In this document: in pieces, positions 4,411 to 64,000 of the stretch | Position numbering within the stretch: the first letter of the stretch is position 1 | How the letters are laid out: every line of letters starts with the position of its first letter | Source of the DNA: Octopus vulgaris | Taxonomy: Eukaryota | DNA length: 64,000 nt | Direction of reading: 5' to 3' | Assembly: GCA_951406725.2 (NCBI GenBank) | Contig: OX597819.1 | Coordinates: 84,134,001-84,198,000 of the forward strand | The notes under the pieces: model-generated | What the model was told of the DNA's origin: nothing | Database searches by the model: none | Seen by the model: the letters and a program-made list of their open reading frames with translations, nothing else | Program-made: the position numbers and the translations under genes

Positions 4411-4411
4411 G

Positions 4412-4471
<60 letters not shown>

Positions 4472-15040: not shown

Positions 15041-18000
15041 CTGTTTCTTTAACAAATGGAGTCGTGAGTTTTGGTGTATAACTACCACTTGTTGTCATAT
15101 TATAGTGTTTAGAAGTTGCTGAAACGATGGTGATATGTTGACTAACAGTAGGTGTCACTGCTGATTCCAAGCTAGTATCTATTGTAAAAGACACCGGTAT
15201 AACAGTTACATTTTTGTCAGTTGTTGATAACAAGTCAATAGTATTTGAATATAGGATATCAGCTGAGATGTGTTCTTGCTGCACTGAACTGTAACCTTTT
15301 GTAAATGAGGAAGTGTGATTTTCTGATACAGGGATTTCAAATTTTGTTTTGAATAAAAGTTTTACATCAAAAGATACGGTTTTCTCTGGCATTGACACTA
15401 AAGTTCTAGTCCTACTGGAACCTGAAGGAACAGGCCTTGCAGAAGAAAGCGCTGAAACATTCTCTGAATGCATTTTTGTTGATTTTTGGATTGACTCCAA
15501 TAATCTTGTGTCAGAACTTAATCGAGGTTGTAGAGATGTTTTGGCATATCTTGTTTTTGATAAAGTACTTGCTAACAAATGGCTAATAAAATGTGAACTT
15601 GATGCAGTAGTAGAATTTTCATCTCTTAAGCTATGTATTGTTTTTGAAGTAAAATGCTCGGTGGTATTATAACTACTATGAAATGATACAAGATAATCAA
15701 AGGTTTTAAGCCTTTGGGTTTGGCTTTGTGTATCATATCTCCTAACTTTCTGTCTAGAATGATCATACAATGGTGAAACTGTGGTTAAATATGCACTGGA
15801 TATTATTCTACTAGGCCTCTGAGTTGTTTTATTAAATTCTGACAAATAATCAGTTAATTTAATTGAAGAGAAAATTATCTTTGAAGTTGCCCTGGAGTAT
15901 TCTAAAATGCTACTTTTTGTAGAAGCTTCAGAAGTTACAGTGAGTATTTCTGTTACAGAAGCATCAGTAGATTTAATAGTCCCCTTTAATAAATCAATCA
16001 TATAAATATCATCTTTCAACTGATATGAATAGGTTGTTGTATCTATAACCCTAAATGTTTCATTAAGTCTAGAAGTTGTTTTATCTATTGTAGATATTGT
16101 ACTATCTAGAAAACTATGTGTTATATTATATTTGTAAATTCCATCTGTATGCCCATATGTCAATGTTCTATTATCTTTAAGTTCTGGAGTAAAAGTTTTA
16201 CTATCTCTAATTCTATACATATAAGTTATATTATCTCTTAGCCCATATGCAAAAGTTGTGCTATCTGTATAAGTAATATTAAATCTAGGAAATATACTTT
16301 CAGTTAGCTTAGATGAAGGTAAACGTTTGTCAATTAGATCCTTTGTTACTCTATCCCAGCTTTTACTTCTTATGAGCTTAGTATAATATATTGTTGTAGA
16401 ATATTTTAATATGAGTTGCTGTGAAGTTCTAATGTAACCTGATGTGACTGCAGTGACATCTGTTGTGGTCGAGATATTAGCTTGGTATAAAGTCATATTA
16501 AATGGTCGTAATGATGTCTTTAAGTCCATTTCTTCAACTGAACTTTTTCTTTCCTTGCTTGATATTTCTCCTGAATGCATTGCATCAGTTGATGTCAAAA
16601 TGCTATAAAAAATATCAGGTTTAACAGAAACATATGGTTTCACTTCTGACATTGTCTGCACCAAAAATTTTTGTGCCTGAGTAGAAATATGCAGATCAGA
16701 TATACTCTTAGTTTCATGGACAGAGGAAATATGATGTTCATACTTTTGCTGTTCTGTCATTAGAACAGTTTCTGTGGTTACTTCTGCTTCTGCAATAAAT
16801 TCATCTGTAATCCGTCTTGTTGAAAATACTTCAAAATCTTCAGAAGTTGTTAAGGTTTTGTCCTCACTGCTAATTAAATGTTTAGTTGACAAAATACTTG
16901 ATATTTCCTTTGAAAGAAATAAAGGTTGTGAAATATTTTTAAACCTTATTTTTACTTGAAGTATATGCTTTGTAGAAGGTTGTCTTGTTATTTTATAATA
17001 AGTAGTCACATCTGTAATCCAAACTGTTGGGGTACTGCCATTCAATGGTCTGAGTAAAACTGAGAATGCTTGTTGAATTACTGTTTCATTTTGAATTTTT
17101 GAAGTAGAGAGAGGTTTTGTTTTATTTACTTCTTGTTTCACTCCTTTCTCACTAACATAATCACTAGAAGTTGTCATTTTGTCAAATTTATCTGTCTTTT
17201 TAAACTTTCTGGTGAAATACTTGGAAAAAATAATAAGACCTGTTGAAATAGAAGTTTCATCTTTTAGATAATGTGTTTTTTCTAACAGTTTAGTGTCTGG
17301 ATGTCTTTTTGAAATTGTTGTATTCCTTTCTTCTACTCTGGAAATAGAAGAAGAAATGGGAAAGAACAAAAAGTCACTTGATATGTAATGGGTAGACATT
17401 GATAAAGATAGAGTTGGCTCAGATGTATTTAGCAAAAGTGCTTCTGCCTGTGAAAATGAGCTGGAAATTTTCTGAAGAGAAATGGAAGAAGACATATGCA
17501 GATATGTTATGTTTGTTTTTGATAATTGTATTGATAATTGCTGTGGAAATATGAATGAAGATGGAAAGAATGTGGAAATATGAAGAGAGGATTCAGATGT
17601 ACTTGGGAGAGATACTGATGCATTCAAGGGAAACTTGGAAAACATTGGAATTGGTAATGAGTATAATGTTGTGTGTGGAACTGATACTGGTATATCTACT
17701 GACGAAAGTGATGTATGTGGAAGAAATGTTAGTGTACGCAGTTGGAATGGTGAAATGCGTATAAAGGATACTGAGATATCCAGTGTGGACATTGTTGTGG
17801 ATTGAAGCAATATTGAATCATCCAGTAAAAACGTTGATGAATGTAGGAATGAGAATGATGCATTCAATGTTGATATTGATGTGTGTGGAAAATAAGTTGA
17901 TTTATCCTGTGGAGACACCGATGAGAGAGAAAAGTAAGCTGATTTATTATGTGGAGACATTGATGTGTGTGGAAAGTAAGTTGATTTATCCACTGGAGAC

Positions 18001-21000
18001 ATCGATGTGTGTGGAAAGGAAGTTGATTTATCCACTGGAGACATTGATGTGTGTGGAAAGGAAGTTGATTTATTATGTGAAAACATTGATGTGTGGGACA
18101 AGGAAGTTGATATATCATGTGGAAACATCCATGTATGTAGAAAATAAGTTGATTTATCCACTGGAGACACTGATGTGTGTGGAAAGGAAGTTGATTTATC
18201 ATATGGAGATATTGATGTGTGTGGAAAGGCAGTTGATTTATTATGTGAAAACTTTGATGTGTGGGACAAGGAAGTTGATATATCATGTGGAAACATCCAT
18301 GTATGTAGAAAATAAGTTGATTTATCCACTGGAGACATTGATGTGTGTGGAAAGTAAGTTAATATATCATGTGGAGATATTGATGTATGTGGAAAGTAAG
18401 TTGATTTATTAATTGGAGACATTGATGTGTATGGAAAGTAAGTTGGTTTGTCATGCGGAGACATCGATGTGTGTGGAAAGTAAGTTAATATATGATGTGG
18501 AGACATTGATGTGTGTGGAAAGGAAGTTGATTTATCCACTGGAGACACTGATGTGTGTGGAAAGTAAGTTGATTTATCCAATGGAGACATTGATGTGTGT
18601 GGAAAGTAAGTTGATATATGATGTGGAGACATCGATGTGTGTGGAAAGTAAGTTAACATATCGTGTGGAGACATTGATGTGTGTGGAAAGTAAGTCGATT
18701 TATTCACTGGAGACATCGATGTGTGTGGAAAATAAGTTAATATATCATATGGAGATATTGATGTATGTGGAAAGTAAGTTGATTTATTCATTGGAGACAT
18801 TGATGTGTATGGAAAGTAAGTTGGTTTGTCATGTGGAGACATCGATGTGTGTGGAAAGTAAGTTAATATATGATGTGGAGACATTGATGTGTGTGGAAAG
18901 TAAGTTGATTTATCCACTGGAGACATTGATGTATGTGGAAAGGAAGTTGATTTATCCGATGGAGATATTGATGTGTGTGAAAAGTAAGTTGATTTATCCA
19001 CTGGAGACATTGATGTGTGTGGAAAGTAAGTTGATATATCCATTGGAGACATCGATGTGTGTGGAAAGTAAGTTAACATATCGTGAGGAGACATTGATGT
19101 GTGTGGAAAGTAAGTCGATTTATCCACTGGAGACACTGATGTGTGTGGAAAGTAAGTTAATATATCATGTGGAGATATTGATGTATGTGGAAAGTAAGTT
19201 GATTTATCCACTAGAGACATTGATGTGCCTAGAAAGTAAGTTGGTTTGTCATGTGGAGATATTGATGTGTGTGGAAAATAAGTTGATATATGATGTGGAG
19301 ACATCGATGTGTGTGAAAAGTAAGTTGATTTATTCACTGGAGACATTGATGTATGTGGAAAGGAAGTTGATTTATCCAGTGGAGATATTGATGTGTGTGG
19401 AAAGTAAGTTGATATATGATGTGGAGACATTGTTCTGTGTGGAAAGTAAGTTGATTTATCCACTGGAGACATTGATGTGTGTGGAAAGTAAGTCGATTTA
19501 TCCACTAGAGACATTGATGTGTGTGGAAAGTAAGTTGATTTACCCACTGGAGACATTGAGGTCCATGGGAAGTAAGTTAATATATCATGTGGAGATATTG
19601 ATGTGTATGGAAAGTAAGTCGATTTATCCACTGGAGACATTGATGTGTATGGAAAGTAAGTTGATTTATCATGTGGAGATATTGATGTGTGTGGAAAGTA
19701 AGTTGATATATGATGTGGAGACATCGATGTGTGTGGAAAGTAAGTCGATTTATTCACTGGAGACATTGATGTGTGTGGAAAGTAAGTTGATCTATCCACT
19801 GGAGACATCGATGTGCGTGGAAAGTAAGTTGATTTATCATGTGGAGACATCGATGTATGTGGAATATAAGTTGATTTATCCAGTGGAATCATTGATGTGT
19901 GTGGAAATGAAGTTGATTTATTATACGAAAACATTGATGTGTGTGACAAGTAAGTTGATATATCATGTAAAAACATCGGTGTGTGTGGAAAGTAAGCTGA
20001 TTTATCATGTGGAGACATCGATGAGTGTGGAAAGCCAGTTGATTTATCCACTGCAAACATCGGTGCATGTGGAAAGTAAGTTGATATATCCATTGGAGAC
20101 ATTGATGTGTGTGGAAAGTAAGTTGATTTATCATGTGAAGGCATTGGTGCATGTTGAAAGTAAGTTGATATATCATATGGAGACATTGATGTATGTGGAA
20201 AGTAAGCTGATATATCATGTGGAGATACTGAGGGCTGCATTGTAACCAAAAGAGATTCTGATGTAAGTGGCAGAGATCCTAATACAGTTGTCGGATACAT
20301 TGATATATTTGTGTGTGATATTGATATATTCAATGGAATCACTGAAGTGCTTAGAAGAGATATCAGTATATTCACTGTAGATGTTGATGTATACTGATAT
20401 AGTGTTGGTTGATGAAATGGGAATACATATGTATGGGGCAAAGATACAGACGTATCCAATAGAGACATAAATGTTTGGTGAGAAGACATACCCAATGTCA
20501 GTGATAAATGAGAAAGTGTTAGGGGTACATGTTGTGTGGGTACAAAAATACCTAGTGGTGATACAGATTCTGACGTGCTTAATGCAAACATTGATGTGTA
20601 TGGGAAGGATGGAGATGTATCTATTGATACTACTGACATGTGTGAATGAGATTCTGATAAATACAGTTGAGATGAAGATGTATATAATTTGGACATATCT
20701 AAAGGGGATTCTGATGTATGTGAAAGCAACTTTGGAAACTTAATTGGGACCATTGATGTATATGAAAAGAATACTGATTCATCTGACAGGGACACTGTTA
20801 TTTCTGCAGGAGATACTGATATGTCCAATGGAGATGGTGATGTATACAAAAGTGATATAGATTTATCTACTAAAGGCAATAAATGTTGTGGCTTGGATAC
20901 CATATGTGGCTTGGGTATACTTAAGGGTAGTATTGTTATAACTGGATGAGATACTGATTTATCAAATGGAGGTCTTGATATTCTGGGATAAGATACTGCT

Positions 21001-24000
21001 ATCTGTAGTGAAGATATTGATGCATGTGGATGTGACATTGACATATACAATTTTGATATTGAACTGTATGGATGGGATACTAACATATCTATTTTAGATT
21101 TTGATGTTTGCAGATGGAATACCGATATACTCAATGGAAATGTTGATGTAGATGGGTGGAATACTGGTATCTTTAATGTAGATTTTGAGCTATATGAATG
21201 GGATGTCGACATGTCCACTGGAAATACAAAAATATGCAGAAAGGGGCTTAATGTATCCAAAGGAGACACAGTTGCTAGCAAATGGGTGGATACATACGAT
21301 GGAGACATAGTTGTCTGAAAGAGAGATGTCAAAGTGTATGAGTCTGTTGATATGTTCACTATGTACATAAATTTATGAGTGTATGGTGTTGATATATTCA
21401 GTAAATATACTGATATATGTATGTATGATGTTGACACATTATATGGGTGCATTGATGTAAATTTATCTAACCCTGATGCATTCCAAAGGTGCATTGATAT
21501 CAGTGTATCTGCTGATACATTCAATAGGTACAGTGGTATATCTGTAAATGATGTTGATACATAAAATAAATCCCTTGATGTATTTGTGCTTGATATTGTT
21601 ACACTCAATGGGTGCATTGAGGTTTGTTTCTCTGATAGTGACATACTTAATAGATACATTAAAGTATGTACATCTGGTATTGACATATTTGATATGTATA
21701 TTGTTATTTGTATGGCTGATGTTGACACATTTAATGGAAACATTGATGTTTGTATCTGTGATGTTGAGGTATTTATCAGATGTGTGGATTTATATGACTC
21801 TGAAAATGATATATTTGAAGGATATATTAATGTATGTATGTCTAATACTGATACATTTGATGGGTACATTGTTGTGTGTATCTCTAATGTTGACATGTCA
21901 GATGGGTACTTTGATGTATGTATGTCTGTGTGTGTTGTATTTGACAGGTACACTGATGTTAGTATGTCTGATGTTGATACATTTGATGGGTACATTGAGG
22001 TATATATGTCCAATGTTGACAAATTAGATGGGTACATTGAAATTTGTATGTCTGATGCTGATACAGTTGACTGGTATATTGATGGATGTATGCCTGATGT
22101 CGACAAATTAAATGGATGCACTGATGCATGTATGCCTGATGTGGACAAATTGGAAAGGTACATTGATGTATGCATGTATGATGTTGACAAATTGGATGGG
22201 TACATTGATATATGTATGCCTGATGTGGACAAATCGGAAGGGTACATTGATGTATGTATGTCTGATGTTGACAAATTGGATGGGTACATTGATGTATGTA
22301 TGTCTGATGTTGACAAATTGGATGGGTACATTGGTATATGTATGTCTGATGTGGACAAATTGGATGGGTACATTGATGTATGTATGTCTGATGTGGACAA
22401 ATTGGAAGGGTACATTGATGTATGTATGTCTGATGTTGACAAATTGGATGGGTATGTTGATGTATGTATGCCTGAAGCTGACAAATTAAATGGGTACATT
22501 GATGTATGTATGTCTGATGTTGACAAATTGGAAGGGTACATTGATGTATGTATGTCTGATGTTGACAAATTGGATGGGTACATTGAAGTATGTATGCCTG
22601 ATGTGGAGAAATTGGAAGGGTACGTAGATGTATGTATGTCTGATGTGGACAAATTGGAAGGGTACATTGATGTATGTATGGCTGATGTTGAGAAATTGGA
22701 TGGGTACATTGATATATGTATGCCTGAGGTGGACAAATTAAATGGATGCACTGATGTATGTATGTCTGATGTTGACAAATTGGATGGGTATGTTGATGTA
22801 TGTATGCCTGACGCTGACAAATTAGATGGGTACATTGATGTATGTATGTCTGATGTTGACAAATTGGATAGGTATGTTGATGTATCTATGCCTGATGTCG
22901 ACAACTTAAATGGATACATTGATGTATGTATGCCTGATGTGGACAAATTGGATGGGTACATTGATGTGTGTATGTCTGATGTGGACAAATTAAATGGATG
23001 CACTGATGTATGTATGTCTGATGTGGACAAATTGAAAGGGTACATTGATGTGTGTATGTCTGATGTTGACAAATTGGATAGGTATGTTGATGTATGTATG
23101 CCTGATGTCGACAACTTAAATGGATACATTGATGTATGTATGCCTGATGTGGACAAATTGGATGGGTACATTGATGTGTGTATGCCTGATGTCGACAAAT
23201 TAAATGGATGCATTGATGTATGTATGCCTGATGTGGACAAATTGGATGGGTACATTGATGTGTGTATGCCTGATGTTGACAAATTGGAAGGGTACATTGA
23301 TATGTATATGTCTGATGTTGACAAATTAGATGGGTACATTGATGTATGTATGTCTGATGTGGACAAATTAGAAGGGTACATTGATGTATGTATGTCTGAT
23401 GTTGACAAATTAGATGGGTATATTGATATATCTATGTCTGATGTTGACAAATTGGATGGGTACGTTGATGTATGTATGTCTGATGTTGACAAATGAGATG
23501 GGTACATAGATGTATGTAAGCCTGATGTGGACAAATTGGAAGGGTAGGTTGATGTATGTATATCTGACACTGACAAATTAAATGGATACATTGAAGTATG
23601 TATGTCTGATGTTGACAAATTGGAAGGGTACATTGATGTATGTATGCTTGATGTTGACAAATTAGATGGGGTCATTGATGTATGTATGTCTGATGCTGAT
23701 ACATTTGATGGGTACATTGATATGTATATGTCTGATGTTGACAAATTAGATGGGTACATTGACGTATGTATGTCTGATGTGGACAAATTAGAAGGGTACG
23801 TTGATGTATGTATGTCTGATGTTGACAAATTAGATGGGTATGATATATCTATGTCTGATGTTGACAAATTGGATGGGTACGTTGATGTATGTATGTCTGA
23901 TGTTGACAAATGAGATGGGTACATAGATGTATGTAAGCCTGATGTGGACAAATTGGAAGGGTAAGTTGATGTATGTATATCTGACACTGACAAATTAAAT

Positions 24001-27000
24001 GGATACATTGAAGTATGTATGTCTGATGTTGACAAATTGGAAGGGTACATTGATGTATGTATGCTTGATGCTGACAAATTAGATGGGGTCATTGATGTAT
24101 GTATGTCTGATGCTGATACATTTGATGGGTACATTGATATGTATATGTCTGATGTTGACAAATTAGATGGGTACATTGATGTATGTATGTCTGATGTGGA
24201 CAAATTAGAAGGGTACATTGATGTATGTATGTCTGATGTTGACAAATTAGATGGGTATATTGATATATCTATGTCTGATGTTGACAAATTGGATGGGTAC
24301 GTTGATGTATGTATGTCTGATGTTGACAAATGAGATGGGTACATAGATGTATGTAAGCCTGATGTGGACAAATTGGAAGGGTACATTGATGTATGTATGT
24401 CTGATGCTGACAAATTAGATGGGTACATTGATGTATGCATGTCTGATGTTGACAAATTAGATGGGTACGTTGATGTATGTATGTTTAATGTTGAGAAATT
24501 CGATGGGTACATAGATGTATGTATGCCTGATGTGGACAAATTTGAAGGGTACGTTGATGTATGTATGGCTGATGTTGACAAATTGGATGGGTACATTGAT
24601 GTATGTATATCTGACACTGACAAATTAAATGGATACATTGAAGTATGTATGTCTGATGTTGACAAATTGGAAGGGTACATTGATGTATATATGCTTGATG
24701 TTGACAAATTAGATGGGGTCATTGATGTATGTATGTCTGATGCTGATACATTTGATGGGTACATTGATATGTATATGTCTGATGTTGACAAATTAGATGG
24801 GTACATTGATGTATGTATGTCTGATGTGGACAAATTAGAAGGGTACATTGATGTATGTATGTCTGATGTTGACAAATTGGATGGGTACGTTGATGTATGT
24901 ATGTCTGATGTTGACAAATTGGATGGATACGTTGATGTATGTATGTCTGATGTTGACAAATGAGATGGGTACATAGATGCATGTATGGCTGATGTTGACA
25001 AATTGGAAGGGTGTGTTGATGTATGTATGCCTGACGCTGACAAATTAAATGGATACATTGATGTATGTATGTCTGATGTGGACAAATTGGATGGGTACGT
25101 AGATGTATGTATGTCTGATGTTGACAAATGAGATGGGTACATTGATGTATGTATGTCTGATGTTGAGAAATTAGATAGGTAAATTGATGTATGCATGCCT
25201 GATGTTGACAGATTGGATGGGTACATTGAGGTTTGTATTTCTGATGTGGACAAATTGGATGGGTACGTAGATGTATGTATGCCTGATGTTGACAAATTAG
25301 ATGGGGTCATTGATGTATGTATGTCTGATGCTGATACATTTGATGGGTACATTGATATGTATATGTCTGATGTTGACAAATTAGATGGGTACATTGACGT
25401 ATGTATGTCTGATGTGGACAAATTAGAAGGGTACGTTGATGTATGTATGTCTGATGTTGACAAATTAGATGGGTATATTGATATATCTATGTCTGATGTT
25501 GACAAATTGGATGGGTACGTTGATGTATGTATGTCTGATGTTGACAAATGAGATGGGTACATAGATGTATGTAAGCCTGATGTGGACAAATTGGAAGGGT
25601 AAGTTGATGTATGTATATCTGACACTGACAAATTAAATGGATACATTGAAGTATGTATGTCTGATGTTGACAAATTGGAAGGGTACATTGATGTATGTAT
25701 GCTTGATGCTGACAAATTAGATGGGGTCATTGATGTATGTATGTCTGATGCTGATACATTTGATGGGTACATTGATATGTATATGTCTGATGTTGACAAA
25801 TTAGATGGGTACATTGATGTATGTATGTCTGATGTGGACAAATTAGAAGGGTACATTGATGTATGTATGTCTGATGTTGACAAATTAGATGGGTATATTG
25901 ATATATCTATGTCTGATGTTGACAAATTGGATGGGTACGTTGATGTATGTATGTCTGATGTTGACAAATGAGATGGGTACATAGATGTATGTAAGCCTGA
26001 TGTGGACAAATTGGAAGGGTACATTGATGTATGTATGTCTGATGTTGACAAATTAGATGGGTACGTTGATGTATGTATGTTTAATGTTGAGAAATTCGAT
26101 GGGTACATAGATGTATGTATGCCTGATGTGGACAAATTTGAAGGGTACGTTGATGTATGTATGGCTGATGTTGACAAATTGGATGGGTACATTGATGTAT
26201 GTATATCTGACACTGACAAATTAAATGGATACATTGAAGTATGTATGTCTGATGTTGACAAATTGGAAGGGTACATTGATGTATGTATGCTTGATGTTGA
26301 CAAATTAGATGGGGTCATTGATGTATGTATGTCTGATGCTGATACATTTGATGGGTACATTGATATGTATATGTCTGATGTTGACAAATTAGATGGGTAC
26401 ATTGATGTATGTATGTCTGATGTGGACAAATTAGAAGGGTACATTGATGTATGTATGTCTGATGTTGACAAATTGGATGGGTACGTTGATGTATGTATGT
26501 CTGATGTTGACAAATTGGATGGATACGTTGATGTATGTATGTCTGATGTTGACAAATGAGATGGGTACATAGATGCATGTATGGCTGATGTTGACAAATT
26601 GGAAGGGTGTGTTGATGTATGTATGCCTGACGCTGACAAATTAAATGGATACATTGATGTATGTATGTCTGATGTGGACAAATTGGATGGGTATGTAGAT
26701 GTATGTATGTCTGATGTTGACAAATGAGATGGGTACATTGATGTATGTATGTCTGATGTTGAGAAATGAGATAGGTAAATTGATGTATGCATGCCTGATG
26801 TTGACAGATTGGATGGGTACATTGAGGTTTGTATTTCTGATGTGGACAAATTGGATGGGTACGTAGATGTATGTATGCCTGATGTTGACAAATTAAATGG
26901 GGTCATTGATGTATGTATGTCTGATGCTGATACATTTGATGGGTACATTGATATGTATATGTCTGATGTTGAAAAATTAGATGGGTACATTGATGTATGT

Positions 27001-30000
27001 ATGTCTGATGTGGACAAATTAAATGGGTATATTGATAAATATATGTCTGATGTTGACAAATTGGATGGGTACGTTGATGTATGTGTGTCTGATGTTGATA
27101 AATTGGATGGGTACGTTGATGTATGTATGTCTGATGTTGACAAATGAGATGGGTACATAGATGCATGTATGGCTGATGTTGACAAATTGGAAGGGTATGT
27201 TGATGTATGTATGCCTGACGCTGACAAATTAAATGGATACATTGATGTATGTATGTCTGATGTGGACAAATTGGATGGGTACATAGATGTATCTATGTCT
27301 GATGTTGACAAATGAGATGGGTACATTGATGTATGTATGTCTGATGTTGAGAAATTAGATGGGTAAATTGATGTATGCATGCCTGATGTTGACAGATTGG
27401 ATGGGTACATTGAGGTTTGTATTTCTGATGTTGACAAATTGGATGGGTATGTAGATGTATGTATGCCTGATGTTGACAAATTAGATGGGGGCATTGATGT
27501 ATGTATGTCTGATGCTGATACATTTGATGGGTACATTGCAATGTATATATCTGATGTTGAGAAATTAGATGGGTACATTGATGTATGTATGTCTGACGTT
27601 GGTACAGTTGATGGGTACAGAGATGTGTGTATGCCTAATGTTGATATATTTGATGTTGATATACTTGGCAGGTACATTGATGTATCTGTGGCTAATGTTG
27701 ACACATTCAAAGCATATATTGATGTATATATGCTTATCTTTGGCACACTTAAAGGGTATGATATATAAGTTGATGTATATGAAATTAGAAATGATATTAA
27801 CATTTGTGGAGTAGACTTTGGTCTATGTGTATATGTATCTGACATAGGTATTGTGGATACAGACGTTTGTAGAAAAGTTAATGATAAGTTCAGTGTTGAG
27901 AGATGTGTAGTTTCAATAGATGCTGTAGCATCCCATGGAGATATAGATGTATGTAGAATGGATAATGTGGCATTTAGTACAGATTTATTCATATGGATAT
28001 GTGATAATGAAGTTAATAATGGGAACATAGGCATTATTGCATAATATGTAAACCTTGTAGTGAATATTGTATGATCTGTCTTAACTAACGACGTATATAG
28101 ATGACTGAAATTTTTGGCAGTCTGTGTAATATATGCTATAGTCATATTTTTTTCTGATATTGCAGTTGTAATTTCCTTCTCTGTTCTTCTAAATTTATCT
28201 TGAAATAATTCTGATACTGTAGCGATTCTTGTTTCTGTGTAAGTAATAATGGATTTTGTTGTGCATATTTTATCTTCATCCTTTGAAATTGTAATTGCTA
28301 TATCTTTTGAGATATCAGCCATGTGATGTGATCTTGTGGCAATTTCAGACTGTACACTTGAAGATGACAGATTAAAATATAAAACTGTTCTAAAGTGAGA
28401 AGGTATTTTCTCAGTTAGAAGTAGATCATATTTAATATGGTCAGGTGACTTTATTTCTGATGTAAATATTATAGAATCATCTCTATGAATATCTTTTGAT
28501 GTCTGAAGGTTATATGGTTCAGAACTAGCTTTTTCTGATGCAGTATCATAATCATGCTTGTATTGATATGATTTGAGTGTTGAAGTTGTTGTATTTTCAA
28601 ACTGATAAGAGTCATACATATCTGTTTGATTAAATAATGTACATTTCATAATTGATGTAGTTTTTACAATAAATGGTGTAGAACTGATGTAAAACTTTTT
28701 TTTATATCCTGGGTATATCCTGCTTAAAGTCTTGAAGGAGGATAATTCCACAGAGTCTGTTGATAATGATGTTTCAGAAGTGAGTGAAGTATAAAAGTCA
28801 TAAGTTTTATAAAGTTTCAAGGTTGTTTTAAAAATTTCCGTTGTCACTGTTATAGAGGGAACAGTTGTCCTTCCAACAAGTACAACATGTGTACTTGTCA
28901 TTGCTCTTATGTAGCCTTTTGACATTTTGTCAGTTACGAAACCAAATAAAATAGAACTGTCATAGAACTTGCTTGAAGTTTCCAATATTGGACTGAAGTC
29001 TATTTTTGGCAGAGAGTGTGGCAATGTTACAGTTGCATATATTGGAGTAACTATTCTTTCCGGCTTTACAATCATAGGTGTTATAGATTGATACTGATAA
29101 CTGGTCAGTGACTGTGTAATTACACTAATTATAGCAGTAAATTTTTTTAAAAGTAGCATGGTTATTTCATCATCCTTTTGCTTGTATATGCCAACTGATG
29201 CTCTAACTTCTTGTGTGAAATTCTTATCAGGTTTGTAAATAAATGAAGTATTTACATATTCCTTAGGATGCATTATTGTTTCCCATTGAGTTGCCTGTAA
29301 CATTTCAGTAACAGACGAACTATCACCCAAATCTGAAATTCCAGTAAATGTTTTATGACTTTTGAAAGGGTATTTTTGAAGTTCCATATCTAAGAAGACT
29401 GTGGTTCTTTTGATTACCAAGTCAGAAATATCGCTCTGTCCCAACTGAAAAGTTGTTAGTAAAGGGAGAAACTTTTGCCAAGGTTTTGTACTACTTGACA
29501 CACTGTGAACATGTCTATCTTTTACACCTAATGTTGTATTTAATGTTAGTTTCTTGCTTTCTGTTTGTCTTTCCATGTCTATATCATAAATTTCTGGTTG
29601 AGTTGTTGAAATATTTTGTATAAATACACTGCTGTCAGATTTAATCTCAGGTAAAATAAAGGCTGTTGATTTTTCTATTATTACTGTTAGTAAGTAGCTT
29701 TTCCCACTCCTATCAATTAAAGAATCATCTGTCATCTTAATACTAATAATATTTTCAGTTGATATTTGATATGGTATATCTACTAGACTTACATGGAAAA
29801 TAGCAGTACTGGAAGCATGTTTGGGCAGAGTGTGATGTGAATAAGAAAAACTTGTCTCTTTTAAAGGTGCTTTAGCTGTAATTAAATGTGATATTGTTTT
29901 CTTAGTCTGCATAATTTGTTGAGAACTAATAAAGGCTAGCTTTGTTGGCATATGTAAAATTGTTTCGTCAACTGACCAATTGAAAGTTGTCTTATCTGCT

Positions 30001-36000: not shown

Positions 36001-39000
36001 TCTTGTAGATAACTTATGGAAACCTTTGTATCTGTCTTATTAATCTGAACTTTATCCAATGTTATTTCTCTTGTCATATTGGCATATGAATATTTTATTA
36101 CTAGTGTACTGACATCCAATGTTTTTGTAGTTAGTACTTCAGTGTCTGGTATACTGATATCCAATGTCTCTGTAGTTTGTACTTCAGTGTCTGGTATACT
36201 GATATCTGGTATTTCTGTAGTTTGTACTTCAGTGTCTGGTATACTGACATCTGATGTTTTTGTAGTTAGTACTTCAGTGTCTGGTATACTGATATCCAAT
36301 GTCTCTGTAGTTTGTACTTTAGTGTCTGGCGTACTGATATCCAATGCCTCTGTAGTTAGTACTTTGGTGCTTGGCATACTGATATCCAATGCCTCTATAG
36401 TTAGTACTTCAGTGTCTGGCATACTAATATCTGGTATTTCTGTAGTTTGTACTTCAGTGTCTGGCATACTGATATCCAATGCCTCTGTAGTTAGTACTTT
36501 GGTGCTTGGCATACTGATATCCAATGCCTCTATAGTTAGTACTTCAGTGTCTGGCATACTAATATCTGGTGTTTCTGTAGTTTGTACTTCAGTGTCTGGC
36601 ATACTGATATCCAATGCCTCTGTAGTTAGTACTTTGGTGCTTGGCATACTGATATCCAATGCCTCTATAGTTAGTACTTCAGTGTCTGGCATACTAATAT
36701 CTTGTATTTCTGTAGTTTGTACTTCAGTGTCTGACATACTGATATCCAATGCCTCTGTAGTTAGTACTTTGGTGCTTGGCATACTGATATCCAATATACT
36801 TGGTGCTGTGACATATATGTAAAATGTGTCCATTATTTTTGTTGTAAAGAGTATAGATTTTATTCCACTAGTAAAATACCAGTCATAATCAGTTGATATT
36901 TGGATCTTTCTTTGAGGTTTGTAATCATAAGTAAAGCTGGAAGAAGTTATTAGAAGGCTGTCAATAAATGCATACATAGGTGTTGCATTATAAAATATAT
37001 ATCTGTCATCATCAGGCTGAAATGGTGTATGTGTAGTTATTTCAAAATGATGCAGATACATTATATAACTGACATAATCTGTTGATGCATCAACTGATGC
37101 ATTACTGGGATATAATGAGTCTAGTGAGACATTTTCTGAAGATACATCAGTCTTGATACTACTGAGTTGTAAATAGTCTGCACTAGTAGATTTACTTAGC
37201 ATCCAAGTCACATCATCACAACAATACAAAGATTTTGGAGTTGTTCTACTGTATGGCATCTTGGAAATCATTTGAAAAAGATGAGTATAGTTTGTTAAAA
37301 TATTTGTTAAAAGTACATCAATCATAGATGTATTCATGTATGGATATTTCTTTTTAATATAGTCAAAAATTTGATCTGATGTAATTAGCTGTTGAGAAAA
37401 ATTACTTAAGATATAATGAAGGGATAAGTTGAATTTAGATAAACTGACATCTGTAATATTAGCTGTTACATTGGAAAGGTATATATATTTAATTGTTGTG
37501 CTTGATTCAGAGGGGAAATGAGGAAGTGACAATATAGGATATGAATGATTTCTTGGTGTATCAATAAATGATGGTATGATTGATATTGGTTCATCAATAT
37601 ATGGATGGCTTGTTTGATAACTGGGATAAAGAATCAATAATATTCCTCGTGTAAGAGTGGAAAATACACCGATGAGATCTGTACTGATGTAGGAGTAATA
37701 TTCTGGATTCCATGTTGAAGACTCATATACAATATCTGTACTGATATGTGACTCATGTTCCACTTTGTCAAGAGAAAATATCTCACTTTTTATACTACTG
37801 TAATGTTCTGATTTCCTTGTAGAAATCTCTTCTTCAGTCTCTTCAGTACTAGCATGGGAATAGTTTTCAGGTTTGTATGAAGAATATTCTTCTATTAGAT
37901 CCATGCTGATATATGAATCATTTTCTTGCTTCTTGGTAGAAAATATGTCTCTCTCTGTAGTGATCATATGTGAAAAATGTTTAGGACTCATTGTAGAAAA
38001 TACAGCAATAATATCAGTTCTGGCATATGAATAATATTTTGATGATCCTGATATTAACTTCTCTATTAAATCACTACTGACATTCTCTGGCTTCTTTGTA
38101 ATAAACAAATCTCTCTCATCATGTACTATGTCCAGATCTGTTTCTAATCTGTCTATAAAAGTTCCTTCACTTTCTATAGTGGGACTGAAAGAATGAGTTA
38201 ATTCTCTGTACGTTGAAGTTGTATCAGTGACAACTGTTCTGACAACTGAATATTTTATTTGTCCTTTTGTTGAAAAGCCACCAATATCATATGTACTGAT
38301 ATGTGAAAATTTCTTTGGTTTCTCAGTTGAAAATTTTTCAATTTCTACAGTAACTACGTGTGAATATTCTGTAGAAAAGTTGTCTATCTTAAATAAATAA
38401 TCTTCTGTTTTTGCTGTTGAAATCACATCACTTTCTAAGATGGTAACATGTGAACGATTTGTTGGTTTTTGCGTAAGAAACACATCTGTATCATATGTAC
38501 TAACATATGAACCCACTTTTGATTTTTCCATAGTAAATATATCACTCTCTACTGAATCAGTTAGTGGATATTTTGCTTGCTTACCTGTAGTTAAAATATC
38601 AATTTTACCTGTACTGATATGGGAATAATCAACTGGTGTCTTAGTAGAAAATACATCACTGTCTTGAAAACTAATGTATGAATGACTTTCTGGTTTTACT
38701 CTGGAAGTGACAGTTCTTTCCAAAGTACAAATGTATGAAAAATTTGATTTTCTCTCTGTGGAGGATATATAAATAATCCTTGTGCTAACATAGGAATAAT
38801 TTCCTGGTTTTACTGGAAACATATCTTTTGCTTCAATAATATGAGAATAATTTTCTGGTCTCTGAGTTGAAATAATATCAATGATATCTGTAATAATATA
38901 GGAATAGTTGATTGACTTTGTTATAGAAATCTCATATACTCCATATGGACTAGAATGTGAATAATATTCTGGTTTTATTGTAGAAAATATTTCACTGCCT

Positions 39001-54000: not shown

Positions 54001-57000
54001 GATGGTAAGTCATAAGTCAAAAGTTTGATTGTTACTGTATCTGAAGACACAGTCGAAATAATAAAGGAAGTAATGTTTAGAAACTTCCAGTATTCATCCT
54101 TCAATGAAATTAGAAAATCAGCTTCAGTTGTTATAGCCCTGAGCAGCACTAAAGGAGATATTTCTTTTGATATGTTACCATAGCTAAACTGTTCTAAGGA
54201 TTCAGGAATTGTCGAGGAAATAAAAGAGTCATCAATCTGAGAAGTTTTCTTTTTTAAATAACTAAATTGACTTTCTGGAGAGGACTTTTCAATGAACATT
54301 TTGTAAGGCATATATTTCATGATGCTGTCACCAGATGTGGCTAAATGAGAATATCCACTGAAAGTAGTAATATCTAGAGTAATTTCTGAATCTATGATTA
54401 CCACTGGAATACTATGAAAAGAAATAAAATCTGATATGCTTTTTGTTGTTGTAGTCTTTTTATAATGCGTGAAAAATAACAAGTATCTTGATATACTGTC
54501 ATGAGATATTTCTGACATACCATAATGAATGGTTGCATCAGTTACATTGCTGAAATCCATTATATATTCGTCATATATTGTTTGTTTTGTAACAGTACTC
54601 TCAGGTGATATCATCACACTGGTGTTTATAACTTGTTCAGTGAGTTCTGTTATAAATAACTTGGCAGTTGTAGAAAGTTTTTTATCAATGATAATAGTCA
54701 ACAGTTTTGAAATTGGATGACTGCTTGTCATTATTAATTTCTTATCAACTGAGATATATAATCTTTTTCTATGAGATGCTGTAAATTGTATGCTGTCACT
54801 AACTAATATATCAACAGAATAATCATGGCTTGTTGGGAAACTTGTTTTCTGATGCATATCTGAAAAAAATCTGTCGGATGCATCAACAGATTGATTTGAA
54901 ATTTCTCTATCAAATGCTGTGTAGTTACTTAATCCATAAATTCCTAAAGCTGTTGAATTCCAGGTACTAGTGGATAGATGTGTAGGTGTATAGACATTTG
55001 TAACTGTAAGGATATCACTTTCAGTTATGTAATTTGAAGTTTTATTCACAAACTTTTGAAAAATCTCTATATCACTTCTGTTGTATTTCAAAGAAGGTAA
55101 TATCATAGTATTTACACTGACAATATTATCGTCTCTAAAACTTTTCATCACATATACTTGTGTTGACAATGCACTGAGAAGAAGAGTTTCTGATGTCATA
55201 ACTTCGCTGATGTTAGATATCTTCTCTTTAGGTACCTGATCCTTTGTTATTTTATAAATTGAGAAATTTGTATATCCACTTTCAACTGATACATTTTGAT
55301 GTATAAAAAGATAGGTTATTTCAGTTATTGTAACTCCAGTTGCTACATCTGCCACAAAACTATCAGTTGTTTTAATATATTCACCACTAAATTTCACTTG
55401 ATCTATACTAGAAGTTCTCCAGGTATTTCCAAATGTTATAGGTTCTCCTAGAAAACTTTCTCTTATGCCAAGTATATCCTTGTCTGGTGTCATTTGAGCA
55501 AGTAAAGGCATCAAATTTACAAAGTATTGAGATGTTTTTTGGTCTGCCAATGATACAACAAATAATGTATCATTTGATATTATATATTCAAGTTTAGAAG
55601 GTGTAGTTGTTATGTCGGAATATTCAAATGTAATCTTTACTGGTATGATAGATGTATTTGCTTCTAAAGTTCCTCTTTCAGTTACAAGGATATTAAATAC
55701 ACTTGTTTCAGGAATAAAACCTTCTGATACAGCAGTTACAGCATCTTTAGATGCTTTTTGTTCTGGTGTAGTAGTCTTATGTGATATTGTTGAGTCTAGT
55801 TTGGAAACACCAATGACTAAATGATCATCTGTTACAAGATCTAATATAGACTTAATAGTCTCTGATACAAAAGTAAAAACCACTGCACCCTTAAGTGTGA
55901 CATATCCTGGACTATATATAATACTTACTGCATCTTTAGATGTCATATATTCTGGCATTGAGGTAACAGTTATTGTACGTTCATATGAGATATATGCTGA
56001 TACAGATTTATAAGTTGTATCTTCAGATATTAAATCTTCTAATATATAAGTGGAAGGTTTATCTTTCATTATTATATGTTCTAGTATAGAACTAAGAGTT
56101 ACCATATCTCCAGATACTACATATTCCAATGTAGGGATAGCAGTTTTTAGATCTTCAGATATTACATGATCAGATACAGAAATAACAGGTAAGGTATCAC
56201 TGGCTGTTATATGATATAGACTGAAAGTAACAGATATTGTCTCTAGAATAGAAGTAACAGGAATAGAAGTAACAGTTACTATATCTTCAGATGTGACATG
56301 ATCTTGTATAGGAGTAACAGTCACTGTATCTCTTGATGTGACCTGGTCTGATATAGACTTAACAATTATTGTATCTCCAGATATGATATGGGCTGGTACA
56401 GAAGTAGCAATTACTGTATCTCCAGATGTAACATGGTCTGGTATAGAAGTAACCATTACTGTATCTCCAGATTTAATATAGTCTAGTATAGAAGAAACAC
56501 TTATTGTATCTTCAGAAGTGACATGATCTGGTACAGAGATTACTGTTACTGTATCTCCAGATGTAACATAGTCTGGTATAAAAGAAACAGTTATTGTATC
56601 TTCAGATGTGACATAGTCTGGTATAGCAGTAACAGTTACAGTATCTCCAAATGTGATATGATCTGGTATAGAAGTAATAGCTACAGTATCTTTGGATATG
56701 ACATGATCTGATATCAATGTAACAGTTACAGTATCTCCTGAGATGATATGGTCTGATATAGAAGTAACAGTTTCTATATCTGCAAATATCACATGGTCTT
56801 GTATAGAAGTAACAGTCGCTGTAACACTAGATGTGATATGGTCTGGCATAGAAGTAACAGTTATTGTATCTCCATATATGATATGATCTGGTATAAATGT
56901 AACAGTTTCTGTATCTCCAGTTGTTATGTGAACTGGCACAGATGTAACAGTTACTGTATCTTCAGATGTGGTATGGTATGGTATAGATGTAAGAAGTACT

Positions 57001-60000
57001 CTATCTCCAGATGTGACAGTTAGTGTATCTTCAGATATGACTTGGTCTGGTGTAGATATAACAGTTATTGTACCTCCAGATGTCATTTGGTCTGATATAG
57101 AAGTAATAGTTATTATATCTCCAGACATTATATGGCTTGGCATATAAATAACAGTTACCATATCTTTAGATATCACATGGCCCACTGTAGAAATATCAGT
57201 TACTACATCTCCAGACATGTTACGTTCAATTGGCTGTACAGTAGTTTCTGCAACCCCAGACATTACATGATCAACAATGGAAATAATTGTTACTAATTCT
57301 TTAGATGTTACAGATGTCACATTTGTGTCCATTAATGTTTGCAATTTTTGTATTTCTTTTGATATATTCTTTAATGTTACCTGCTGTGATGTAGAACTAA
57401 TAACTGCTATATCAACAGACATTACATGTCCTGTTTGAGAAGGAACTCTCAATATGTCTCCATAAGTTAATCTTTTTAATGCAGTGGTAATGATTTTTGC
57501 ATCCCTTAATGTTACATGATCTTCCATGGAAATAATATCTACAGTGTCTTTATATATGTGTATTGATAGAGTAGTATTTAATAAACCTTCAGATATTGCA
57601 TATTCTGGCATAGAAGTAATCATTATGTCTTCTGATGTTATATTTTCTCCAATAGTTCTCAAGGTCTCTGGTTCAACAAGTTCTAATAGAGAGATAGCAG
57701 TTATGGTATCTCTTGATGTTACTACCTGTGTTATAAATGTAACATTTCTTCTGTCTTCAGCTCTTACATACCTCTCTACAGAAGTAACCATTTCTGTAGC
57801 ATTAGATGTTACAAGTTCCAGTATAGAAGTAGCTGTTGCTATATCAATATATACTATAGGTTTCACTGTTAATATAACATCCTCAGCTTTTATATATAAC
57901 TGAATAAAAATTTCAGTGGTTATATGTTCTGGCTCAGAAACAATAGCTAAAATTTTTTCTGATGCTTCTTTTGTAGTTTCTGTGAATGTTGTTTGTTCTG
58001 AGATAGTTGTTGTATCTCTGGATATTAGATATTCTCGCAATGAGCTAAACGAGACATCTCTGCATATCTGGTCTCGTATAGAGGTAATAGTCATCATCTC
58101 TACAGATGTTATAGGAGTTATGTAGTCTGGTGTAGACTCATTTGAGATATATTCATACTTAGAGCTAACAATTTTCATGTCTTTATATAATGTATGATCT
58201 GGTTTAACAGTGAAATTTGCTGTGTAATCAGATATTACATGTTTCAGTATAAAAGAAATTTTTACCATATGTCTTGATGTTAAATGCTTCAATGTTGAAG
58301 CAATAGTTGCTATATCTTCAGATGTGATATATTCTGGCTTCAGAGTAACATTTATGGCTCCTTTAGAAGTTACTTGCTTTGATATAAAAATGATAGTTGA
58401 TGCATCCTCAGATGTTATATTTTTCAATACAACAGAAACTTTCATGAACTCTTCAGTTGCAGAAGCAATAATAGCAACATCTTTATGTGTTACATGTTCT
58501 AGTATAAAATCAACAGTTATCACTTTATCAGATGTTATATTCATTGTATCTATAAACATAATATATTCAGGTTTAGAAGTAAAAGTCACTTTATCCCTAG
58601 TTGTTGCATATGCAGTTATACTTGTTCTCACTTCAGATGTTTCATCTTCTGGGTCGAAAGTAAAATTTACCGGAAGTTTTGATATAGAAGTAGCATTTAT
58701 GAAATATTGAAATGTTATATTTTCTGGGATAAGATGTATAGCTCTCATTTTTTGTGTAATTACATGTTTAGGTACAGATTTTAAAATGGTCATACCTCCA
58801 AATATTGTTTGATCTGATTTATCTGTAACTGTTGTATCTTCAGGTTTTACTTGTTTCTGTTTTACAGTATATCTTGCTACTTCATGTTTTAGCATAGAAG
58901 TGATAGTTGTCATATCTTCAATTAGAGTAGATTCTACTAATGAACTAATATGTATTATGCTTGTGTCTGTTACATGTTTTGTAGTTGTCATAGCAATTAT
59001 ATCTCCAGATAATATAAGTTCTTTAACAGAAGTAATAATTGCTGTATCTTCATATATTGTATATTTTTCAGGTATTACATATTCGGTTATAGATGTGACA
59101 GTTGTTGTATTCTTATATTTTATTTGATATGATAAAGAAGTAATAGTTATCCATTCACTAGCTGTTAACTTTACTGCATCTATAAATGTCATATTTTTCG
59201 GTATAGAGGTAAGAGTTAGCATATCTCTTGATGTATCATATTCTGTTATAAGAGTAACATATGTTTTGTCTCCAGATGTTTTATGTTCTGACAAAGAAGT
59301 GTATTTTATTGGATATTTAGATATTATAGGCTCTGCTGTGGCACTAATATTTATCAAATATTTAGATGTTACAAATCCCAGTATAAAAGTAACTTTTGCA
59401 GCATCTTCTGATGTAACAACTATGTATTCTGGTATAGAAGTGACTGTTACTATATCTCCTGCAGTTACATATTCAGTTGTCAAATCAATATGTTTAGATG
59501 TCACATGTTTTGTTACAAGTGTAACATTTAAGTCTCTATATGTCACATGATCATGTGTAGAAATAATTATTTCCATTTCTTTAGATGTTACATTTTCTGG
59601 TTTGAGAGTAAAACTTATTGAATATTCAGCTGTTACATGTTCAGGTATGAGAGTAATGATATGTGTATCACCAAATGTTTTAAGCCTTTGTTGAGAAGTG
59701 CCATTTTGTACAATTTTAAATTCTACAACTGTTAAATCTTTATATGTTGTGTATTCTAGTAGAAAAGTAATATTTTCTGTATCCTCAAATGTTATATATT
59801 TTGAATCAGAAGTAATAGTTTGTATGTATTTAGATGTTACATATTTCAGTCTAGAGTCAATTGTAGCTTTATCTTCAAACTGGGAACCTGAAAGATCTCC
59901 ATCTGTTTTTACCAATGTAATTGTTTTAAATATAGGACTAGTAAACATGCTGTCTTCAGATGATTTAACAGTTACATCTGTGGATGATATTTCCCCTGAT

Positions 60001-63000: not shown

Positions 63001-64000
63001 ACATTTATGATATCACTTACAAGTAATAAATCTGTTATTTCCTTACTTTGTGATGGTGTTACTTTTGTTTGGTAACCTACAGATGTAATTTCTGTAATTT
63101 CAAATTCAGTTTTATTTATGAATGTTGGTTGTATTTTAGTGATATTACTTATATCCAATATATCTATCGATAAAGTATACCCCAATTCTTTTCTGATAGC
63201 CTTTTCACTAACTCTTTTGGAGAAAATATAATCAATAAATGGTATACTTGCACTGGAGTCAGTTAAGAGTTTTGTAATGTCAGTGACTGGAAGTGAGAAG
63301 CTTTGTTGGCTGCTATCAGTTGTAACAGTTACCATAATTTCAGTCATAACTAAATATTTTCCCATGACAGTAGCTTGGGAGAGGCTTTTAATATCAATAA
63401 AGTGCTTTGAGCTATCTGATACTAAAAGACTTGAATAAGTGGTTATTGATATTCCTTTATCTTGAATAACAGTTGTATTTATACCATCATCAGAAAAAAG
63501 TTTGAAATGGATGATTTGTGGTATTCTTTTCTGAATGTCAGTAACACCTGTTTTTGTAATTGTTTCAGTCATTTTATATAAAGCAGTTTCATCAGATTTA
63601 TATTCAATAGATTTCATTACAAGAATGGCTTTTTGTGATGTAGTGTACAAGCCATAATCAGCAATAATTAGTGCGCTCTTGATATAATCAGAAGCACCAA
63701 CTAGTGCAACTGTTGTATAATTGTCTTCATATGATTCAGTTAGTTGTTTTTCAGTTATCGTTGACCCAGATAACATTATACCAGAAGTATCTACTCGTAG
63801 AGATTTTACATCACAAGTAGCTTCAATGTGTCTTACATCATAACTAATGAGAGATTTTTGTGTTAAATCAATGATTGTAACTGATGTTGATATCAAATCA
63901 TATTTTGTTCTGTCAGAGACAATTGTTTTGGTTATTGTCTCATCTGTGACAACCATCCTCACTATAGTAGTTTGCCTGGCTACCTTTCCTTCAATAGTAA
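15041..64000 (-). CDS. Giant coding exon (>=48,960 nt, 5' end outside window) of a mucin-like, NIDO-domain (MUC4-type architecture) extracellular protein; S/T-rich repetitive stalk
   Basis: The ORF 14979..63962 has no stop for 16,327 codons, and the frame stays open to the window edge (TIEGKVARQTTIV upstream of the GTG). A strong donor AAAGAAACAG|GTAAGC lies at 15041/15040 (phase 1), matching the phase of the next exon. The exon has none of the SINEs or microsatellites that saturate the adjacent introns. Confidence 0.93.
17860..20230 (-). repeat. Coding minisatellite A: 42-bp/14-aa unit PHTSMSPVDKSTYF, roughly 55 copies
   Basis: The plus-strand unit GTGGAAAGTAAGTTGATTTATCCACTGGAGACATTGATGTGT repeats in tandem. 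Internal duplications at offsets 168 bp (18123/18291) and 378 bp (18443/18821) are multiples of 42. Confidence 0.95.
21840..27600 (-). repeat. Coding minisatellite B: 42-bp/14-aa unit IHTSMYPSNLSTSD, roughly 135 copies with higher-order repeats
   Basis: Plus-strand unit GATGTATGTATGTCTGATGTTGACAAATTGGATGGGTACATT. Shadow ORFs recur at offsets 417, 588, 1596 and 1638 bp. Confidence 0.96.
30780..36050 (-). repeat. Degenerate Tyr-rich 18/19-aa repeat zone (e.g. IKTEISDDYIGIKYLDIID / MTTLTDSDYVSVMHAATHY / MATKISSDYKKYSDIID)
   Basis: Recurring T.+S.DY...KY.D pattern with ~18-19 residue spacing in the translation; boundaries approximate. Confidence 0.6.
36100..36800 (-). repeat. Isolated island of the 45-bp/15-aa DISMPDTEVLTTEAL repeat (~15 units, 135-bp higher-order unit)
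   Basis: ACTTTGGTGCTTGGC recurs at 36361, 36496, 36631 and 36766 (spacing 135 = 3x45). The unit is the same as in the 43.1-48.0 kb array. Confidence 0.93.
37650..39900 (-). repeat. Degenerate 57-bp/19-aa repeat (SDVFSTKTPVDYSHISTGK-like)
   Basis: Consecutive 19-mers IYISSTERKSNFSYICTLE / RTVTSRVKPESHSYISFQD / SDVFSTKTPVDYSHISTGK / IDILTTGKQAKYPLTDSVE / SDIFTMEKSKVGSYVSTYD / TDVFLTQKPTNRSHVTILE. Confidence 0.75.
41050..42600 (-). repeat. Coding minisatellite C: 45-bp/15-aa His/acidic unit GPDVSTIHSEV(HSTD|QFTE), often alternating as a 90-bp dimer; degenerate flanks 39.9-41.0 and 42.6-43.1 kb
   Basis: Plus-strand unit ACTTCACTATGTATAGTACTGACATCTGGTCC(C/A)TCTGTA(G/A)A(A/C)TGT repeated in tandem. 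Confidence 0.95.
43130..48040 (-). repeat. Coding minisatellite D: 45-bp/15-aa acidic unit DISMPDTEV(L/Q)TTE(AL|IP|IL), roughly 105-110 copies, 810-bp higher-order repeat
   Basis: Tandem 45-bp unit. The near-identical shadow ORFs 45787..46410 and 46597..47220 are offset by 810 = 18x45. Confidence 0.96.
50570..51510 (-). repeat. Second block of the 45-bp/15-aa DTVTVTSIPDHVTSG repeat
   Basis: The translation shows ~20 units such as DTVTVTSIPDHVISG / DTISVASIPDYVISK. Confidence 0.88.
56050..57260 (-). repeat. Core block of the 45-bp/15-aa DTVTVTSIPDHVTSG repeat; degenerate lattice continues over ~55.6-61.6 kb
   Basis: GDTVTVTAIPDYVTS / EDTITVSFIPDYVTS / GDTVTVISVPDHVTS and similar. The decayed pattern E[HY][VI]T[SF].D... 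persists in both flanks. Confidence 0.9.

Follow-up and report, generated by a model that had tools for sequence, protein, structure and literature searches.

The window analysed here, a 64,000-nt stretch of Octopus vulgaris contig OX597819.1 (C6), carries on its minus strand the 3′ half of a very long open frame, probably one exon of a MUC4-like mucin gene, and the first three of the small exons that follow it. Positions are those of the window, extended upstream as contig position minus 84,134,000, so that values above 64,000 lie outside it.

Stop-free frame and gene structure

The minus-strand frame from 63,998 to 14,982 contains no stop in 16,339 codons, nor in any 2-kb bin above 16,000; the remaining five frames in the window hold 806–1,878 stops each. 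From the donor at 15,041 to 63,998 there are exactly 16,319 codons, the minimum that the first-pass annotation of this stretch had given for an exon open at the window edge. We added 100 kb of upstream sequence, an extension which that annotation had proposed, and the frame stayed open to extended 119,522 (34,847 codons, no N), with a strong consensus acceptor at extended 119,473, 49 nt inside the end of the open frame. The resulting exon candidate measures 104,433 nt (34,810 full codons, phase 1-1, minus strand, C6 84,253,473 to 84,149,041). The earlier figure of at least 49 kb was therefore right about the open edge and short of the true size, and the suggestion that this is among the largest animal coding-exon candidates holds. 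With codons taken as independent and repeats ignored, the chance of finding no stop, given the base composition, is about 10^-1156. An in-frame ATG at extended 119,498 (A at -3, G at +4) lies directly before the pyrimidine tract of the acceptor, so the exon is either internal, with a first exon elsewhere, or the first coding exon; with either start, and no splicing within it, its length is 104,433 nt or more.

At its 3′ end the frame is closed by the donor ACAG/GTAAGC at 15,041 in phase 1, in agreement with a phase-1 acceptor at 9,086; the consensus, phase-matched donor described earlier is thus confirmed. The exon at 6,055–5,768, used as a query, matched two proteins among 26 candidates of 169–2,000 aa, a mucin-4-like protein of O. 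bimaculoides and a mucin-like protein of Argonauta hians, and members of their cluster guided exon placement. Downstream of the giant exon we placed 16 small exons, with all 16 introns being GT-AG. The joined model runs for 35,767 aa to its stop (4.0 MDa before sugars; coding sequence, CDS, of 107.3 kb), and its C-terminal 957 aa align over their full length with Argonauta model P0005 at 82.6% identity. The main features of the gene are as follows.

Extended 119,474–119,513, minus strand: acceptor region; 5′ boundary predicted from sequence
15041..64000, minus strand: in-window 3′ half of the giant exon candidate (open frame, donor)
15035..15043, minus strand: terminal donor CAG/GTAAGC; junction peptide also in O. 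bimaculoides and Argonauta models
8971..9086, minus strand: 116-nt exon, phase 1-0, linker into NIDO (exon model)
5768..6055, minus strand: 288-nt exon, first part of NIDO (exon model, profile match)
831..1044, minus strand: 214-nt exon, second part of NIDO (exon model)
C6 84,129,839 to ~84,104,880, below the window start, minus strand: thirteen further exons (exon model)

The thirteen exons encode, in order, a Cys-rich linker at the AMOP position, VWD with GDPH, EGF-like repeats, a transmembrane helix, a tail of ~100 aa and the stop. NIDO was recognised on the orthologues (PF06119, E 2.7e-26 and 1.7e-25), and the window exon was over the cut-off in a genome profile search. VWD (PF00094) was over the cut-off on the orthologues, with GDPH at residue 353 of the C-terminal part of the octopus gene; PF00008 matched the EGF repeats of Argonauta P0005, and Notch EGF repeats were the sole matches in a PDB search. 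The helix, a hydrophobic 19-mer scoring 3.25, lies at residue 35,647 ahead of a basic run and the tail. For AMOP, no Pfam match was obtained on the orthologues even at E 10; a Cys-rich stretch of ~135 aa occupies the position between NIDO and VWD, and we presume its likeness to AMOP. Domain order, GDPH, helix and tail thus give the layout of MUC4, AMOP apart. On this evidence from sequence, we consider the gene to be, with good probability, a MUC4-like, type I membrane-tethered mucin of octopus and the stretch to be its single large ectodomain exon. In this class of mucins, one very large exon is normal; the first-pass annotation had left the gene unnamed.

Public models capture the gene in pieces. 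The O. bimaculoides (XP_014785347.1, XP_052824421.1) and Argonauta hians (GAB1598474.1, GAB1609470.1) models are orthologues with the same exon junction and C-terminus, and the junction peptide FVKET/DKTFSS is present in all four. They are 1,586–1,739 aa long, of which only ~670–1,080 residues come from the giant exon, at its 3′ end. Identity to O. bimaculoides is 88–90% at this 3′ end versus 95–100% for several domain exons, and in Argonauta 619 residues align at 43% identity without a break in the frame. The 5′ part appears in O. vulgaris CAI9724496.1 (P0006; 'Hypothetical predicted protein', 7,276 aa), which is 100% identical to five blocks of it. P0006 starts at exon residue 948 and ends at ~88,300 with a 14-aa tail in another frame, and it is not joined to the mucin domains.

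Composition of the exon and signs of translation

Tandem arrays make up 37% of the in-window part of the exon and 23% of the whole. Self-similar sequence amounts to 30%, and 72.7 kb (70%) is non-repetitive, with the first 45 kb almost entirely unique; 92% of the 31-mers in the exon are unique. The first-pass annotation had stated that over half of the sequence is unique or diverged and that repeat expansion alone is insufficient to explain the frame, and both statements hold. It had also called the exon free of microsatellites: we found one dinucleotide tract (12 nt) in the 104 kb versus 24 in 13.6 kb of three downstream introns, and no homopolymer of at least nine across the 104 kb. From 5′ to 3′, the parts of the exon are:

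Exon residues 5–23, outside the window: hydrophobic stretch, candidate signal region
Extended 119,471–116,633, minus strand: K/N-rich, Cys-bearing head, ~950 aa (composition)
Extended 116,632–72,400, minus strand: nearly unique Ser/Thr-rich sequence, ~44 kb (repeat scan)
Extended 70,922–64,819, minus strand: three degenerate arrays (repeat scan)
56,246–57,125 and 50,580–51,501, minus strand: short degenerate 45-nt (15-aa) arrays (repeat scan)
43,056–48,037; 40,866–42,840; 39,976–40,310; 36,107–36,795, minus strand: acidic T/D/E-rich 45-nt (15-aa) arrays, mutually related (repeat scan)
21608..27667, minus strand: 42-nt (14-aa) array; 125 of the 127 Asn of the block are in sequons
17875..20225, minus strand: His/Pro/Ser 42-nt (14-aa) array (repeat scan)

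The encoded 34,810 residues contain 27.8% Ser plus Thr (S+T), 4.5% Pro and 9.8% Ile. Relative to the expectation from base composition, Cys is at 0.08x (12-fold depleted) and Thr at 1.9x. A strict Pro/Thr/Ser (PTS) rule (S+T at least 40%, P at least 5%, in 100-aa windows) describes 7% of the exon, and 62% is covered at S+T 25% and P 5%; by charge and hydropathy, 8 of 174 windows are disordered. The low strict PTS share and the few disordered windows indicate that this is not a classical mucin domain of variable number tandem repeats (VNTR), and solubility would come from glycans.

N-x-S/T sequons hold 721 of the 978 Asn of the exon, against ~26% expected. All but one of the 14 blocks show the excess (p 9e-4 to 5e-49), and the remaining block has 7 Asn. 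Repeats make the array blocks non-independent; the unique blocks alone still show the excess, and in non-array blocks it is confined to position +2. It extends through the middle of the exon (88,300–64,000), which is absent from all models found (141 of 178 Asn in sequons).

Variation in a relative gives a second line of evidence. Four of the 24 listed sequencing runs were aligned to L006:1–7,000, covering the 5′ end of the exon and sequence upstream. Run X4 represents a relative diverged by ~3%, for which the rows examined leave out 17 indel and 254 substitution rows. In its record 17 (L006:1–2,977), eight indel events account for all 93 gap letters, with adjacent gaps (2+22, 1+2) counted as one event each; every one of the eight is a multiple of 3 and none makes a stop ((1/3)^8 = 1.5e-4). 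The indel-length comparison suggested in the first pass thus came out as expected of a coding frame, for the 5′ end only. Among 30 exon substitutions examined, 21 change the residue, 9 are silent and none is nonsense. This silent share is near the neutral value of 0.286, which suggests, from a small sample, that residues drift almost freely. We conclude that nearly the whole frame is very probably translated, and we strongly infer from the sequence that nearly all of it enters the secretory pathway and that selection acts on the frame, the S/T content, the N-glycan sites and the absence of Cys, not on exact residues.

The head contains 15 Cys and a furin-like RIKR. A phmmer search with the first 1,200 aa retrieved only P0006, Pfam gave no match, and ESM Atlas, queried with the first 550 aa, gave no usable one. 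Within the head, Cys residues are regularly spaced, mostly every 19 residues, at exon residues 664–857 (L006:2,900–3,480, minus strand); strands are predicted there with low confidence, and the segment, for which no relative was found, could be a small folded repeat or serve in dimerisation. A single-sequence AlphaFold model of the first 900 aa reached a pLDDT of 33 and was set aside. Possible convertase sites are RIKR/DIS at residue 502 (L006) and KKR/DIS at ~3,198 (L005), with the same DIS tripeptide after the basic site. Short Cys islands also occur in the Cys-poor stalk, at window ~50,350–51,950 (minus strand; residues 22,514–22,544 and 23,001–23,027). Protein searches with residues 1–5,000 of window 34,002–63,998, among proteins of 30–5,498 aa, and with residues 5,000–9,999 of window 15,042–45,038, among proteins of 5,499–17,499 aa, gave no match. 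Pfam matches to Extensin_1 (below cut-off) and Herpes_TK_C on the repeat arrays were judged compositional.

Splice signals and continuity of the exon

Word counts cover the 76.6 kb of coding sequence outside the arrays; expected values come from shuffles that preserved amino acids and junction bases. The sense donor word GTAAGT occurs 14 times versus 30.5 expected; only two of 2,192 hexamers are more strongly depleted, and none of 300 shuffles reached so low a count. Its antisense ACTTAC is undepleted (24 versus 24.9). Runs of six A are likewise depleted (100 versus 174 expected). The two depletions fit selection against internal donors and slippage-prone runs. At synonymous sites, no avoidance of AATAAA was found in the whole exon (91 versus 90 expected); its density is 0.87 per kb in the exon versus 1.71 in introns, and that of T6 runs is 0.34 versus 2.09 per kb. 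The first-pass annotation had asked how such an exon could be defined by the spliceosome and protected from premature polyadenylation: the word avoided is the donor GTAAGT, and AATAAA shows no such avoidance.

Several observations speak against an uninterrupted exon joined to the mucin domains. GTGAG, GTATG and GTAGG are undepleted, and with a matrix built from 12 of the gene's own donors nine internal donor-like sites score at least 10 (true donor 11.3). Two of the internal sites are perfect or identical copies of strong donors:

38579..38587 (site 38,584), minus strand: 9-mer identical to the true donor, phase 1; candidate alternative donor giving an 80,889-nt exon
Extended 108,798–108,806 (site 108,803; L005:4,798–4,806), minus strand: perfect CAG/GTAAGT, phase 0; frame shift if joined to 9,086

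In P0006 the open frame is interrupted by five introns, and O. bimaculoides P0003 skips ~2.9 kb around the 17.9–20.2 kb array, in frame, where a splice, a gap and a deletion are alike possible. The head (first 946 aa) has only a weak excess of sequons (15 of 74 Asn, p 0.06). Record 18 of X4 has 8 gap letters without assigned positions, and it also covers 840 nt upstream of the exon. Cross-species evidence comes from the two ends of the exon (5′, ~5.5 kb; 3′, ~4 kb), ~10 of the 104 kb. In the 44 kb upstream there are 23 ATG-to-phase-1-donor candidates for a first exon, none standing out from the rest. The 5′ boundary, the continuity and the linkage of the 5′ part to the NIDO exons are predictions from the sequence.

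The main rival, unlikely in our judgement, is that everything is coding and that in-frame introns are alternatively retained (exitrons), together with alternative donors, so that the full 104-kb exon is rare or never made. It gains from in-phase internal donor-like sites at 115,681, 74,956, 72,442, 68,278 and 38,584, from the in-frame skip in P0003, and from the four P0006 introns between in-frame blocks, all of which are multiples of 3 (780, 885, 2,265 and 1,062 nt). However, the stretches that P0006 drops share the stop-free frame and the sequon signal with the rest (5/7, 10/11, 23/28, 12/17 and 12/18 Asn in sequons), which means that each is translated often enough for selection. The best donor word is depleted, not kept, several of the implied splice sites are in weak context, and P0006 itself is labelled 'Hypothetical predicted protein'.

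Two other explanations fit poorly. One frame might hold two transcription units, a 5′ secreted protein from the ATG at 119,498, ending at an internal out-of-frame donor or a poly(A) site, and a shorter mucin transcribed from a promoter within the frame. That ATG has A at -3, G at +4 and a hydrophobic stretch after it, 91 AATAAA are on offer, and the public models are split between a 5′ part (P0006) and a 3′ part (P0001, P0003). We nevertheless regard such a division as very improbable: no stop separates the units over 104 kb, the sequon Asn of the middle (141/178) need a signal peptide upstream in the same chain, and repeat families connect blocks over 73–65 kb, 59–52 kb and 50–37 kb. Least probable of all is an assembly artefact, through expanded arrays or a misjoin, or a recently dead relic. 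Here 30% of the exon is repeated and the support is assembled sequence rather than spanning long reads, but 72.7 kb is non-repetitive with 92% of 31-mers unique, and assembly errors break frames rather than open them, as in a repeat-rich paralogue that is broken in the same assembly. Contigs of runs X2–X4 cover every one of the 30 bins in the 5′ stretch, and the C-terminal exons are intact. Considering all of this, we put the probability that the stretch is kept as one exon in a full-length mRNA (~107 kb CDS) at roughly 0.7.

Of the remaining alignments to L006:1–7,000, run X5, whose RNA origin is a guess, has depth in 2 of 30 bins, both in a common repeat upstream of the exon, and has no bearing on expression. 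A joint from 4,072 to 6,023 in X2 and X3 was rejected as a repeat match, one side being 24 letters long and the ends GA..TC. Upstream, Pfam was run on 113 of 235 open reading frames, picked by length and strand, and returned transposon fragments, one weak DUF4833 match and an opposite-strand SPMAP1-like exon. The latter (PF15075, E 6e-21; L044:1,250–1,534, plus strand, extended ~205,300) is the first non-transposon gene recognised upstream and roughly bounds the first-exon search to ~86 kb. An inverted duplication of ~1 kb around a (TA)n tract, spotted by eye, lies upstream of the acceptor (L006:7,000–9,000, extended ~121,000–123,000). A search of sequencing runs with segment L003 (extended 84,001–94,000, within the exon) listed 24 runs, 4 of them holding the segment and no RNA run among the holders listed, which likewise says nothing about expression. 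In the intron after the giant exon, window 11,880–12,780 (minus strand) holds a decayed retroelement-like fragment with a 172-codon open piece.

Proposed mechanism, relatives and known systems

If the stretch is spliced as one exon, the two flanking introns would be recognised by intron definition, since it is implausible that splice sites pair over an exon of 104 kb. Internal sites may be silenced through depletion of the strongest donor word, with RBMX-like repressor proteins probably contributing; according to the accessible part of one study, RBMX represses cryptic sites in human ultra-long exons (PMC11446547). The 91 AATAAA, which have not been removed, must go unrecognised, perhaps owing to a scarcity of U-rich downstream elements, and weak downstream elements would let these words be passed. 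By analogy with MUC4 biology, self-cleavage of the precursor at GDPH might yield one subunit in the membrane and another that is huge and glycosylated; the latter could form, or be shed into, an epithelial mucus or glycocalyx barrier. Assuming 0.25 nm per residue, the chain may reach 8–9 micrometres. Provided that there is a coding exon upstream, in-frame skipping of this phase 1-1 exon could yield a short form like MUC4/Y.

Another giant stretch of mucin type, ~85 kb long, rich in T/P/E and composed mostly of tandem repeats, was observed at C17:51,382,400–51,468,000 (plus strand; loci L047–L045, L039–L037 and L028–L026), upstream of NIDO exons at 51,471,442 and 51,473,632. It is interrupted by frameshifts, either consensus errors or real, into open pieces of 12,930, 3,812, 2,994, 2,697 and 2,149 codons, and it suggests that giant mucin exons recur in octopus. 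NIDO loci on C23, C6 (134.7 Mb), C17 (51.7 Mb), C13 and C10 (30 kb each) and C4 (20 kb) had no long S/T-rich frame within stretches of these lengths. At C4:94,165,000–94,167,000 (minus strand), a NIDO locus lies in a 742-codon open frame, which suggests an intron-poor paralogue.

Taken as a whole, we hold it somewhat better than an even bet that this is the longest described eukaryotic protein-coding exon, encoding a mucin of ~35,800 aa with a near-neutral stalk, and a family trait missed by annotation. This wider claim covers splicing as one unit, a mostly unique stalk limited by frame, S/T content, N-glycan sites and donor avoidance, and the second mucin exon of ~85 kb; as a record for all eukaryotes it is qualified, with PKZILLA exon lengths outside the comparison. 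Among the matches listed in literature searches, which left subscription journals largely uncovered, there was no description of the gene and no 100-kb coding exon. If kept as one exon, the stretch would raise the ceiling for coding exons to at least one and a half times that of the longest human MUC12 allele, without VNTR, and would offer a natural test of how a spliceosome passes dozens of donor-like sites and how 91 AATAAA go unused along an A-rich RNA of 104 kb. The product would be a secretory-pathway protein in titin's size range. Near-neutral residues under a strict frame would clearly exemplify selection for length and glycan sites, not for sequence, and the locus illustrates how the largest animal genes can be overlooked or fragmented by gene callers.

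The first-pass annotation had measured the exon against MUC16 (~22 kb) and titin (~17 kb), a benchmark that is outdated: in the available text of one source, the MUC12 exon is named the largest human coding exon, with a protein of up to 23,080 aa, and the longest human MUC4 VNTR allele has 27,843 bp (PMC13345508). The largest coding exon that we found in print, in sources available in part, is thus that of human MUC12, and 49 kb alone would probably be no record. MUC12 is a length-variable VNTR whose exon is below 69.3 kb, a bound taken from protein length; judged by that partial account, the octopus exon is at least 1.5x longer and mostly unique. MUC4, as described in the accessible portions of two sources, has a large S/T-rich exon before NIDO, VWD with GDPH, EGF and an anchor, and the MUC4/Y and MUC4/X forms are without that exon (PMC10754145; PMC13345508). 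The octopus gene shares with it the one large S/T-rich exon, NIDO, VWD with GDPH, EGF repeats and a membrane anchor. In contrast to the repeat-built MUC4 allele, as far as that allele is described there, the octopus exon is 3.75x longer, 70% non-repetitive and rich in N-glycan sites and hydrophobic residues. The likeness is one of domain layout, and a relation to vertebrate MUC4 is not drawn from a tree.

Spider glue AgSp1, in the part of the source available, has a coding sequence of 42,270 bp in two similar-sized exons and is highly repetitive (PMC6553539). From that account, its likeness to the octopus gene is that of a very long invertebrate secreted glycoprotein gene.

Titin has several hundred exons. 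PKZILLA-1, in the text available, comprises 45,212 aa encoded by 17 exons and is ~25% larger than titin (10.1101/2024.01.29.577497). On these partial descriptions, both belong to the same size class as the octopus model of 35,767 aa, but they consist of folded domains spread over many exons, whereas the octopus chain would derive 97% of its length from one exon and be extracellular.

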